From: a phage
Length of the DNA stretch: 64,000 nucleotides
NCBI GenBank assembly: GCA_024614665.1
Contig: GCA_024614665.1_4861.1
Reading direction: 5' to 3' (one strand)
The position numbers were made by a program, and so were the translations under genes. This document shows, piece after piece, positions 17,527-21,701 of the stretch (positions are counted from its first letter, which is position 1; every line of letters begins with the position of its first letter). Under the pieces are notes generated by a model. The model was not told the origin of the DNA and ran no database searches. It saw only the letters and a program-made list of their open reading frames with translations.

Positions 17527-17606
17527 GGGCGAGCAAACGGACGGATTCGAACCGTCGAAATATCCGATTATGAGTCGGGTGTTAATTCCTCTAACTTCGC
17601 TGCTCT
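17527..17606 (-). pseudogene. tRNA-like element (degenerate): T-arm GACGG-TTCGAAT-CCGTC and anticodon-arm-like CCGA-CUCAUAA-UCGG (CAU), but no pairable acceptor stem
   Basis: Hand folding of minus strand; anticodon loop identical to elongator tRNA-Met loops; acceptor stem cannot be formed and the variable region is 6 nt. Confidence 0.35.
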
Positions 17607-17675
17607 TGCTTTGACCGGTCTCGAACCGGCGACCTTCCTCAAAGAGGTTGCTCTACCTACCTGAGCTACAAAGCC
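17607..17675 (-). pseudogene. tRNA-like element (degenerate): canonical acceptor, D-arm and T-arm but anticodon arm shortened by about 4 nt
   Basis: Minus strand GGCTTTG-TA-GCTCAGGTAGGTAGAGC...GCCGG-TTCGAGA-CCGGT-CAAAGCA; only 13 nt where a 17-nt anticodon arm is expected; G1-A72 mismatch. Confidence 0.35.
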
Positions 17676-18926: not shown

Positions 18927-19418
18927 TCACCTCCGTAGTTCGTAAGTGCTAATCTCACCACCGGTGTAGATATCGCATTCGGACGCAATCTCAACAGCAC
19001 GAACCGCATTCGCGCCCATCTTCATCGCACCCAACGCGTACTCGTAACCGCTTCCGGTTGCCAGAGGTGGTGTGGCTTCACTCCACCACAACGACACGTC
19101 GTCTTCACGCTTCCCACCGACTATCGCTTTCCCTGAGGCCAGAAGCATCAGGAAAGTAAAATCCATCTTCGCAGGTAACTGCGAGCTTTGTGTTAACCCC
19201 TTGTAGCCGGGTCTCAAGCGGATAGTTTCCAGCAGGGCCAATTGTCCTGTGATGTCGCCGCTTACCCCGAACACCACAATTCGTTCACCGGTAATCCACC
19301 ACTCCTCGTCAGGAGGACAGACGAATAACTTCTGGGTATTCAGGTTGCAGATATTCGACCCACGGGTTAACTGGCCGTCAGCAGCTAAGACTTTTCCATC
19401 GAACGCTATCGTGGTCAT
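18927..19418 (-). CDS. HslV-like Ntn-hydrolase peptidase (proteasome beta-type, 163 aa)
   Basis: N-terminal MTTIAFDGKVLAADGQ matches HslV [20 protein letters not shown] with Thr directly after Met; C-terminal LATGSGYEYALGAMK...ASECDIYTGGEISTYEL matches HslV IAIGSGGPYAQAAARA...AGDICIYTNHFHTIEEL; no HslU-like ATPase in window. Confidence 0.6.
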   Translation of the reverse strand: MTTIAFDGKVLAADGQLTRGSNICNLNTQKLFVCPPDEEWWITGERIVVFGVSGDITGQLALLETIRLRPGYKGLTQSSQLPAKMDFTFLMLLASGKAIVGGKREDDVSLWWSEATPPLATGSGYEYALGAMKMGANAVRAVEIASECDIYTGGEISTYELRR

Positions 19419-19949
19419 GATTTAATTCTCCGTTTGGTTTATCATACCTCACGCAGAATCTGTAAATTTTAATCAGCCAGGTACCGTCGTTTCTCAACGG
19501 GAGTACCCACCCCTCTCGTCTGTTCCGAGCCGCCAAGATTTGGACCAACCTCCTCGTCGGAGTTATCCCCCAAGTCTGCGGTTCTACACGCAGACCCCTT
19601 TTCGACGCAACGCCGAATTCGAATCAGTTTTGGCCCGACGCCAGAGCGGAATCAGCGATAACTATCGGAGGTAAGTTCAACGACGTCTCTCCGCTGCCCA
19701 GTCCTCTGGCGCTGCCACGGTCAACTCGGATTTTGTCATGGGTGCGCAGTCGACTTTCTCGACACTCTCGCAAACCGAACTACGCCCGACGTAGCACCGT
19801 CGGCAGGTCGGTTATTTACCGAGTACCTGAATGGGTGGTGATTGTCGGAATCCCCGCCGACGCTCACCGGTTCTGTTCCACGGCGAAAGTTTTCCAGAAC
19901 ATAATAAATCACGCAGTGTTAGATTGCGCTTTGTCGAAGACACCACGGT

Positions 19950-19990
19950 AGGTATTTTCGAAAAAGCGTCCTGGGTAACAATCCCAGGAC
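19950..19990 (-). terminator. candidate rho-independent terminator inside ORF-free region
   Basis: Minus strand 8-bp stem GTCCTGGG/CCCAGGAC with 7-nt loop followed by GCUUUUUCG; no protein gene upstream of it. Confidence 0.35.
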
Positions 19991-20349
19991 TTGGAGCCCT
20001 AGCGTGCAGGGTTTAAAAGTGATTGGACCATTGGCGCGGTCAATCGCTATTCGCATATAACAACAAACTCACGTAATCAAAAAATTACCGGCTCGAGGCG
20101 TAGGCGTCCAGGAGCCGGTGAGTCACACAGCAGTGAGTCCCTCTGCGGGGATTTTCGTGGAGCTTGTCGTTGGAATAAAAATCCGTCCCCGGACGGGTTG
20201 GTGGTGTGGGTCGACTTGTCAGAGTCTGCCGTCCAGGGAGGCGGCCACCGAAGCTATGGGTTTTGGACATCGAGTGGTGGTCTGAACACACGATAGGGAA
20301 ACCACGTAAAAAATACACAGGGTACCCAAACCAGGACGTCTGTCCGATC

Positions 20350-20545
20350 ACGATCTCTTAATAAGGATCACGCGCGCGCCCGCACGCGTTTTAAGATCTT
20401 AATATATTAATATATTTATTTATATAAATAATTATAATAATTAAATATAATACCTAAAGGTATTATTATATTTAATATTATTATATATTTTAAAAGATCC
20501 TGGAGGATACGGGTGTGCGCACGCGCACGCGTATAAGGAAAGGGT
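20350..20545. promoter_or_regulatory. AT-rich quasi-palindromic element flanked by alternating purine-pyrimidine GC tracts (candidate origin/unwinding element or promoter hub)
   Basis: About 100 bp of nearly pure A/T (20396..20495) with an inverted repeat around TTAAATATAATACC/GGTATTATTATATTTAA; flanked by CACGCGCGCGCCCGCACGCG (left) and GTGTGCGCACGCGCACGCG (right). Confidence 0.35.
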
Positions 20546-21121
20546 CTTCGACCCGATCCACAGGATCGATCTAAAAAACAATCTAAGTGATTGTTTTAAA
20601 AAGAAATTTTGAGAATTAGATTAAATTATCCCCTAAGGGGGATTTTAGAGTGAGTTAAACAACCCAAAGAACTCGTAAGTAACCGACAGTGTGTGTCGGT
20701 TACAGAACGATCCAGTTTTCACCCAGACATGGCACGAAGTGCTACCCAACGTGTGATCGTCGTCGCCGGCCGCGACCGTCACCTCGGAGCCGAAACGGGA
20801 ATGGCACTCTCGCGCTCTCAACGGCCCGCTGGCGCGATTTTCCGGTAGGGGGAACCCAAGTGTACTGGGTCAGGTATAAATCTCGTTCTAGCGCTTTCTA
20901 GAGCGTTTTTAATAACTGGTTAAAAAACATACAATCCTGAATCCACATTCCCTGAATTTCCTCGCCCCGACAAAAATAAATTCTCTGTCTCGATACATAA
21001 CCCCCTCTAAAACGCACGTAACCGACCCTAGAAAACGATAAACTGCCAAAAACGAGCTACCCTACATCCAGACCACTTAATCGTTTTCTGACGTCTCCTA
21101 GACCCCCTTTAACCGGCCGGT

Positions 21122-21184
21122 TAAAAAATAATCAAAAAAAAATAAAAAAAATAAGATTGGCGTACTCCCCGAAGAGAGTACGCC
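21122..21184 (-). terminator. rho-independent terminator
   Basis: Minus strand hairpin GGCGTACTCTC-TTCG-GGGAGTACGCC (11-bp stem, UUCG loop) then very long T-run. Confidence 0.7.
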
Positions 21185-21191
21185 TAGTGAC

Positions 21192-21701
21192 TTAACACTT
21201 GATGGTATAGCCATCAAGGCCAAGGTGTACTGGTTTTATCCATAACCCTGGCTCCCCGAAAATATTCAGGTCGTAAGTTTGGTAATGCATGATCTTTGCA
21301 GGAACATGCACACCCATGCGCTGCAGAAATTCCCAGACGGCGATGTAGCGTTCACGTGTGATGAACATTAACCCGGAGTCGAACCCGGAACCGATGTCTA
21401 AGAAATTACCAAGAGAACTGTCAAAACTTGACACACCATCTTGAGTAAGTGCGACCAACCCTTTAGTTAAATCTCTGTGGTTGTCAATGAAGTTACAGAG
21501 ATCTACGATGGTTATTTGACCGTAAATACGACGGAGGACGGCAGCAACAGCCAAAATCTCGCTGGTATTTCCGTAGTCACCTAAAGGGTTATGGTCCATC
21601 ATCGCAGTAATTATGCTTGTGTCACAGAGGTCGATTAACCGCTGGTCGTGTACCACCAGGTTAAGACCTTGCCCCACCCGCATGGTTGGCGCAGTAAACA
21701 T
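21192..21701 (-). CDS. hypothetical protein (about 169 aa; start moved to internal ATG)
   Basis: ORF track ORF 21192..21746 overlaps the upstream gene; internal ATG at 21701 (MFTAPTMRV) removes the overlap. Confidence 0.45.
   Translation of the reverse strand: MFTAPTMRVGQGLNLVVHDQRLIDLCDTSIITAMMDHNPLGDYGNTSEILAVAAVLRRIYGQITIVDLCNFIDNHRDLTKGLVALTQDGVSSFDSSLGNFLDIGSGFDSGLMFITRERYIAVWEFLQRMGVHVPAKIMHYQTYDLNIFGEPGLWIKPVHLGLDGYTIKC

Follow-up and report, generated by a model that had tools for sequence, protein, structure and literature searches.

A single-copy, A/T-rich element as a candidate replication origin of SPN3US-like nucleus-forming jumbo phages

The Dam-coupled replication origins, Escherichia coli oriC, P1 oriR and Vibrio cholerae oriCII, combine an A/T-rich unwinding region adjoining recognition sites with clustered GATC and an available Dam-family methylase. 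No published origin, packaging initiation (pac) site or account of the region described here was found in the literature searched for nucleus-forming jumbo phages. The phiKZ group lacks both DnaG and AEP primases, and priming by the phages' own RNA polymerases has been proposed (PMC7824862). Here we describe a single-copy, cis-acting DNA element at positions 20346-20571 of a 64,000-nucleotide stretch of phage DNA (GenBank assembly GCA_024614665.1, contig GCA_024614665.1_4861.1; the whole stretch is called the window below). The element, which appears to be undescribed so far, resembles the Dam-coupled origins in both of these respects, the methylase being encoded in this case by the phage. Of the readings considered, the likeliest is that SPN3US-like nucleus-forming jumbo phages start replication here, at their only or principal origin. 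The specific form of this proposal, an unwinding element with flanking initiator sites that is possibly coupled to methylation and primed by RNA polymerase, we put forward tentatively.

Searches with megablast and blastn assign the window to a Salmonella jumbo phage of the SPN3US type (genus Seoulvirus, genome about 240 kb), whose records are 95-100% identical to it; its orientation is the reverse complement of the SPN3US record JN641803, and position 1 of that record is window 20603. Genome-wide statistics refer to a complete genome of 240,413 bp joined from five pieces. The original prediction, made from the letters alone, had called the region unlike any other intergenic region in the window, a claim that is upheld and that extends to the whole genome. 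In window and genome alike, the A/T count per 100 bp reaches 95 at the element as against 73-74 at the runner-up site, and the element's pure A/T runs of 54 and 35 nt compare with a longest run of 21 nt elsewhere. By nearest-neighbour duplex stability its weakest 100 bp stand at -87.9 kcal/mol, with a genome mean of -140.1 (z 8.6; z 4.6 for the next site). The element also holds the genome-wide maximum of GATC, 8 per 250 bp (next best 4), and, within the window, the longest perfect alternation of purines and pyrimidines, 23 nt against 16 nt for the second longest. Three conserved boxes are each present once in the genome, even when 4 mismatches are allowed. The same extremes recur in a different genus: the element of Erwinia phage Asesino is 96% A/T over 100 bp (75% at the next site) and has the highest GATC density of that genome.

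Each of the short motifs reported in the original prediction is present in its place (AAGGATCA at 20363-20370, AAGATCT at 20393-20399, AAGATCC at 20494-20500 and GAGGATAC at 20503-20510), and together with the features around them they give the element a definite layout. Its left edge is an outer GATC pair, GATCACGATC (20346-20355), where most lineages have two or three GATC sites; this runs into the conserved, single-copy left box GATCTCTTAATAAGGATCACGCG on the plus strand (20352-20374) and the left GC tract CACGCGCGCGCCCGCACGCG (20369-20388), a GC clamp whose length is not conserved. The A/T core follows (20389-20495), about 107 nt at 94-95% A/T, the seat of the extremes of composition and instability and the presumed DNA-unwinding element; its few G and C residues are confined to AAGATCT and to the central palindrome. 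Within the core lie a distal, A/T-only palindrome at 20406-20441 (arms 20406-20423 and 20424-20441, 89% complementary) and the central palindrome or hairpin ATAATACCT-AA-AGGTATTAT at 20447-20466, which has 9-bp arms, extends to arms of 27 nt that are 78% complementary, and is centred 36.5 nt from AAAGATCC. On the right stands the right box TTTTAAAAGATCCTGGAGGATAC (20488-20510, plus strand), single copy, which holds a GATC and the dyad TCCT-NN-AGGA. After it come the right alternating purine/pyrimidine GC tract GTGTGCGCACGCGCACGCGTATA (20513-20535), the motif GTATAAGGAAAG (GTATAATGAAAG in Erwinia phages) with a small hairpin GGGTCTTCGACCC (20531-20554, plus strand, conserved in alignment A1), and a right outer GATC cluster GATCCACAGGATCGATC (20555-20571), whose positions vary by lineage while GATC itself is kept in most.

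This layout bears out the structural claims of the original prediction in part. The central inverted repeat is real, but the element as a whole is no true quasi-palindrome: its flanks differ and are directional, and AGGATCACGCGCG and AGGATACGGGTGTGCGC are direct, not inverted, repeats. Since AGGATCACGCG.. and AGGAWAYGGCGTGCG.. are likewise direct repeats and the flanks are no mirror images, the element has a polarity. Both flanks had been described as prone to form Z-DNA. On the right, where the tract is a conserved alternating run, this stands: taking a GC-rich alternating run of about 12 nt or more as the criterion, the right flank is Z-prone by sequence, with a 15-25-nt run in 10 of 12 phages despite sequence change. 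The left tract is interrupted (CC), and its length ranges from 6 nt in SPAsTU and 8 nt in Huxley to 18-20 nt in SPN3US and Asesino. The cruciform potential seen earlier turns out to be modest, the hairpins being short and single-strand DNA folding of the cores only modestly above shuffled controls (z -0.9 to -3.3).

Comparison with related phages, proposed beforehand as a check, finds the element in synteny in about 10 lineages, just past conserved 1134-nt and 510-nt genes. The protein encoded next to it is only 48-60% identical across these lineages, and the intergenic DNA around the element is not conserved. The carriers are Seoulvirus (SPN3US, MET_P1, SPAsTU), Erskinevirus (Asesino, phiEaH2), Wellingtonvirus, Machinavirus including the ChrisDB/SNUABM_4 subgroup, an Enterobacter ludwigii "plasmid" and two metagenomic lineages. 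The left box is invariant as ATCT..TAATAA.GATC.CGC in 10 phages, the invariant left module being (GATC-N2-)GATCTCKTAATAAGGATCACGCG (alignment A2), and the right box is invariant as AAAAGATCCTG.AGGA.A.G in 9 phages, as part of a module in which TTTTAAAAGATCCTGKAGGAWAYG precedes a GC-rich tract and GTATAATGAAAG (alignment A1). Between the boxes, 93-97% A/T is kept while both sequence and length (about 55-194 nt) vary; conserved composition with free sequence and length is what one expects of an unwinding element set between recognition sites. The core holds one to three short palindromes whose sequences are lineage-specific (ATACC/GGTAT, ATATC/GATAT, ATCCC/GGGAT, AAACCC/GGGTTT and TAATTATA/TATAATTA). 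In 7 of 10 lineages these palindromes are centred at two distances from the start of AAAGATCC, about 37-39 and about 75-77 nt; ATATC/GATAT, ATCCC/GGGAT and TAATTATA/TATAATTA are those found at 37-39 nt in lineages other than that of the window, whose distal A/T-only palindrome roughly matches in position the second, GC-containing palindrome of the others. A third dyad, TCTTTTAAAAGA, sits on the right box itself. A pattern scan of IMG/VR with the right box gave mostly chance matches, and one Asesino-like relative was left after filtering.

Two of the sequences met in this comparison deserve a remark of their own. NZ_CP134650.1, deposited as Enterobacter ludwigii "plasmid unnamed1" (222,441 bp, circular; the isolate came from a gull cloaca), is in fact the genome of a jumbo phage related to SPN3US, with a gp263 homologue 57% identical, the same synteny and the element present; its occurrence in the isolate may reflect a carrier state or pseudolysogeny, or else culture contamination. 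Contig JBOFYW010000579.1 (222,728 bp) of GCA_051654845.1, a metagenome-assembled genome labelled "Shewanella sp.", is a near-complete jumbo-phage genome of this group whose element has two palindromes, 39 and 76 nt from the right box. The assignment of this phage to a Shewanella host is doubtful.

The concentration of GATC at the element stands out from genomes that are otherwise depleted of it. GATC is under-represented 1.9-fold in SPN3US (489 sites vs 937 expected) and 2.7-fold in Asesino (361 vs 960), yet 10 of 11 phages have 5-8 per 280 bp at the element vs 0.3-1.1 in neighbouring DNA. That the outer GATC sites move from lineage to lineage suggests selection for GATC itself. SPN3US gp105 is a methylase of the D12/Dam class (PF02086, E 2.5e-52) with presumed GATC specificity; it has homologues in Wellingtonvirus, Machinavirus and Asesino (gp121), and the position of the methylase gene is syntenic. 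GATC is scarce in SPN3US and Asesino, then, although both encode a Dam-class methylase.

Cumulative GC skew had also been proposed as a check, and the raw curve shows no inflection at the element; it rises monotonically with gene orientation and is thus uninformative. Residual skew was obtained by regressing windowed skew on coding-strand occupancy (R2 0.41) and then adding a two-replichore term. For SPN3US, the best bidirectional origin falls at 237-240 kb for all window sizes (F 9.7-15), next to the element at 240.4 kb, which is position 0 of the circle; the polarity is the usual one, with a G-rich leading strand, and the cumulative minimum and maximum lie at about 5 kb and 113 kb. For Asesino, the best origin falls at 240-245 kb, the element being at 245.3 kb, with a minimum at 7 kb and a maximum at 117 kb. 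In both genera the best fit thus lies within 0-5 kb of the element, and residual skew gives weak support to an origin there.

Among the candidates named in the original prediction (a replication origin, a packaging or partition site, an early promoter cluster) the origin fits best; a partition site has no support, and the packaging site is rated lower, as discussed below. We favour an origin because the easiest-melting, unique site of the genome is bounded by GC tracts and by asymmetric GATC-bearing modules, with spaced dyads in a drifting core, and because a Dam methylase is encoded in a GATC-depleted genome and a weak skew minimum falls at the element. Initiation might then proceed as follows. 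A phage protein would bind the GATC-containing boxes on both sides (..TAATAAGGATCACGCG on the left, TTTTAAAAGATCCTGNAGGA on the right), and negative superhelical stress would melt the A/T core of about 100 nt, the least stable duplex of the genome. The core palindromes, usually located some 38 and 76 nt from the right box, could extrude as hairpins that hold the bubble open, or could be extra sites for dimer binding. The GC tracts would bound the bubble, and the alternating tract on the right may absorb or sense supercoiling as well. Through the GATC clusters and the phage Dam-family methylase, firing could be tied to the methylation state, as it is at oriC, P1 oriR and V. cholerae oriCII. Priming would fall to one of the phage RNA polymerases, a possibility that follows from the lack of a recognisable primase in this phage group.

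Several observations weigh against an origin at this site. The left box is missing in the ChrisDB/SNUABM_4 subgroup, and the phasing of the palindromes fails in 3 of 10 lineages (phiEaH2, the Enterobacter phage and lineage L154), so that phasing of the dyads is a tendency and no rule; a strict version of it, kept in 7 of 10 lineages only, was dropped. In Derbicusvirus (CR5, Derbicus, Phobos) its place is taken by a different repeat element, also A/T-rich, which could be a functional analogue with a different specificity. (In Cronobacter phage CR5 and the Erwinia phages Derbicus and Phobos, this element is made up of CATTCATT repeats, an AATTGAT..ATCAATT palindrome and ATCCCCCCTTGATCCCCCCTT.) The neighbours of the element encode a DNA-ligase-fold protein and proteins of unknown function, with no Rep or initiator family detected among them. 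Large lytic phages may replicate mainly by recombination-dependent means, in which case a single dedicated origin is perhaps unneeded. The skew signal is weak, with a genome-wide block-permutation p of about 0.07 for SPN3US and F of 3.4-6 for Asesino; a two-breakpoint fit left free responds chiefly to the minus-strand tail-fibre block at 204-216 kb, a case of gene-specific confounding; and SPN3US and Asesino are not independent tests because they share their gene order. For these three reasons skew is counted here as weak, consistent support.

Transcription offers another account of the region, as a boundary or control region between the gp263-264 operon and the next unit (small RNAs, the HslV-like gene and tRNAs), in which the element would act as a terminator or insulator and/or carry a unique promoter read by the non-virion RNA polymerase, with regulators binding the boxes and the hairpins terminating transcription in both directions. 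The surroundings suit this account. The element lies in an open reading frame (ORF)-poor gap of 1.2 kb in which terminator-like hairpins are enriched 5-fold (10 vs 2.0 expected), mostly in the gene direction. A and T runs border the core hairpins, and beside the right tract a -10-like GTATAATGAAAG is conserved. Downstream, gp1 and the tRNAs are without an early promoter of their own over more than 4 kb. Sequence alone does not reveal the middle and late promoters of the phage group (PMC7598289), so that one of these may be present here. The early class can be recognised, and here the suggestion of an early promoter cluster is rejected. A k-mer analysis recovers de novo the consensus cAG-ATAGATATTATCT-nnGTGA with 25-32 sites that reach 15 bits or more; each of them points in the gene direction and precedes a ribosome-binding site. 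Asesino has the same consensus, and it fits the published early promoters of the virion RNA polymerase (vRNAP) of this phage group. The element scores 0.5-13.8 bits, which is not above composition-matched shuffles in 9 of 10 phages. (Sigma-70 promoters were rejected too: matches in the core are at the chance level for A/T-rich DNA, and the phage group transcribes without host RNA polymerase.) Against a control region stand also the boxes, single copy in 240 kb where promoter and regulator motifs normally recur, and the hairpins of the element, which are weak (2-3 G:C pairs) next to strong terminators just outside. The clustering of GATC and a GC-bounded A/T core of variable length are left unexplained, and we hold a transcriptional role to be unlikely.

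A pac site, where terminase or an accessory protein would act on the boxes and make the first headful cut within or close to the A/T core, perhaps under the control of Dam methylation as at P1 pac, would account for a single-copy element about 4 kb downstream of gp260, the large terminase gene, and for GATC clusters flanking a central region in a phage with its own Dam methylase, an arrangement that recalls the P1 site. Many GenBank records, moreover, begin or end in or near the element. These record ends are assembly breaks, located as they are exactly at the palindrome (the ends of SPFM2 overlap by the 17-nt palindrome) or at A/T direct repeats (20405), while the remaining records merely copy the SPN3US numbering; physical genome ends as read from record starts were rejected on the same grounds. 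Of 65 GATC sites in 11 lineages, only 6 fit the P1-type hexamer TGATCA/G. To our knowledge no small terminase is known in the SPN3US phage group, which counts against a pac site, as does the need for a 55-194-nt A/T core that it leaves unexplained. The terminase of SPN3US resembles that of T4, and its packaging is considered a headful process independent of sequence (PMC5694885; PMC5000459). A pac site is therefore unlikely in our estimate. Still less probable is an architectural protein-binding site, for anchoring of the genome in nucleus or capsid or as a signal for DNA ejection or uptake, or a near-neutral, slippage-prone A/T spacer. Dyads about 3.5 helical turns apart do suggest a nucleoprotein array, and indels of A/T units among close relatives point to slippage (17 extra nt in MET_P1; a core of 194 nt in the Enterobacter phage). 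Yet neither a precedent nor a candidate binding protein is known for the former, and a neutral spacer is at odds with boxes, GATC clusters and a right tract that are strongly conserved at 48-60% protein identity. The match of the left box to the E. coli oriC 13-mer R plus its adjacent GATC (16 of 18 positions, GATCTCTT-ATTAGGATC) and the oriC-like GATC cluster could further suggest a mimic or captured copy of the host 13-mer region that recruits DnaA or SeqA. The match loses its significance when the null model retains the GATC sites (156 of 2000 shuffles do at least as well; p about 0.08), similar pieces stand in swapped order relative to oriC, there are no conserved DnaA boxes within about 400 bp on either side in 10 phages, and the phage nucleus largely excludes host proteins (PMC13282480), all of which makes a mimic very improbable. 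Two further candidates were discarded: a telomere-resolution site of the N15 type, which shares the 14-mer ACGCGCGTATAATG with the Asesino right box, because the element has no full palindrome; and a plasmid origin, for which no plasmid homologue was found, the sole match being the jumbo phage deposited as a plasmid.

The gap that contains the element extends from about 19950 to 21190 and is flanked on both sides by minus-strand genes, the order in gene direction being gp263, gp264, gap, HslV-like gp1 and tRNAs. Directly upstream of the element in this direction are two terminator-like hairpins on the minus strand (20576-20643), AACAATC..GATTGTT with a T run and ATCCCCCTTAGGGGAT; it would appear that the terminators insulate the element from upstream transcription. 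Other hairpins of the gap lie, for example, at 20672-20718, 20089-20119 and 20183-20196. Blocks of the gap that are conserved with SPAsTU, including 47 identical nt around GTAACCGACAGTGTGTGTCGGTTAC, may be small non-coding RNAs of the minus strand; Rfam 15 covariance models over 19400-21300 gave no match apart from one at chance level (E 0.31). For the element itself a structured RNA was rejected, there being no Rfam match and an RNA of 95% A/U being implausible. The SPN3US record (JN641803/NC_027402) lacks 57 nt of the gap, window 20604-20660, at its start/end junction, and the missing nucleotides include a conserved hairpin, ATCCCCTAAGGGGGAT.

Some features of the window and of related records are set down here for completeness. 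At about 19415-19990 (minus strand), where phage 1252 has an annotated coding sequence of 576 nt, the window shows short ORFs only; a pseudogene, a frameshift or an error of sequencing in the SPN3US lineage may lie behind this. Rfam finds a full-length group I intron match (RF00028, 65.5 bits) at 1228-1537 on the minus strand, and two tRNA-like sequences, also minus strand, at 17532-17603 and 17606-17675 (30.6 and 38.1 bits); both are seen by Rfam only and missed by ARAGORN, and one of the two is "tRNA-OTHER" in the SPN3US annotation. A fuller form of the early promoter consensus is aaa-N-tttCAG-ATAGATATTATCT-nnGTGAg, and downstream of many copies comes a leader that they have in common, made of a short hairpin and then AATCGACTATTA. 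Examples in the coordinates of the SPN3US record are 4427, 7390, 15614, 23810, 28969, 56294, 65413, 72486, 94239, 113986, 165687, 223277 and 238181. In the first 5000 positions of LR535901.1 (Salmonella phage SPFM1), consecutive 60-nt blocks are each reverse-complemented in place, and the gene calls there are corrupted. The records of SPFM5-10, 12, 14, 15 and 20 probably have the same line-by-line artefact; the "fragmented" look of SPFM records comes from each 60-nt line having been reverse-complemented separately.

For the start of replication in nucleus-forming jumbo phages, the element provides a precise candidate of about 230 bp, whose boxes, palindromes and GATC sites are specific handles for mutation. 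If it is an origin, marker-frequency analysis and biochemical dissection of initiation inside the phage nucleus become possible, and it helps to find the initiator and possibly to build replicons or reporters maintained in the phage nucleus. The element could even be the first cis-acting replicator of nucleus-forming jumbo phages (Chimalliviridae relatives), primase-independent and Dam-licensed, with a Z-prone supercoil sensor and a GC-clamped, hairpin-studded core; that composite claim we regard as doubtful, but if true it would supply a portable module for replicating foreign DNA in the phage nucleus. Even as a pac site or as an insulator of transcription it would be without a described predecessor in this group. 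In any case it accounts for the tendency of assemblies of these phages to break here.

Set beside the known systems, the element shares traits with several. With phage origins such as the T7 primary origin and T4 oriF and oriG it has in common an A/T-rich unwinding element and RNA polymerases supplied by the phage, and RNA-polymerase priming is plausible in a group without primase (PMC7824862). It differs from them in having no recognisable promoter into the core, where the early class was tested and is absent, and in that upstream transcription is apparently terminated short of the element. Herpesvirus oriS and oriL likewise place a hairpin-capable, A/T-rich palindrome between flanking recognition boxes, in a virus that replicates in a nucleus-like compartment. 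The boxes of the element, however, are different from one another and direct rather than inverted copies, its palindromes are short (5-10 bp arms) and number two or three, and there is no homology. P1 pac resembles it in GATC clusters on both sides of a centre, possible Dam control and headful packaging; it differs in that TGATCA/G is not the repeated unit here, in that the centre here is an A/T tract of about 100 nt, and in that the element goes with a T4-like terminase. The early promoters of phiKZ-like vRNAPs are A/T-rich too, and the half-site AGGTATTA of the central palindrome (AGATATTA in Asesino) is similar to their core AGATATTA, but position weight matrix scores of the element are far lower and equal to those of shuffles, and the flanking CAG ... 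CTnnGTGA is missing. The hairpin promoters of the N4 vRNAP are alike in shape, with stems of 5-8 bp and loops of 3-4 nt, and belong to an unrelated, single-subunit polymerase.

The Dam-coupled origins offer the nearest parallel in how the element would work. Like the two conserved boxes here, the 12-mers of oriCII and the 13-mers of oriC contain GATC. Unlike these origins, the element has neither DnaA boxes nor a recognisable iteron array (at least 4 copies): there is no perfect DnaA box (TTWTNCACA), scattered one-mismatch matches are not conserved in position across 10 phages, and each side carries one GATC box, AAGGATCAC and AAAGATCCT, in direct orientation, halves of which are duplicated only in lineage L154. 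It has no recognised initiator gene beside it, its core is far more A/T-pure and is bounded by GC tracts, and it would act within a proteinaceous phage nucleus that excludes most host proteins. Because every named family of origins or pac sites fails on at least one defining feature, we describe the element as one that would work like a Dam-coupled origin, not as a member of that class.

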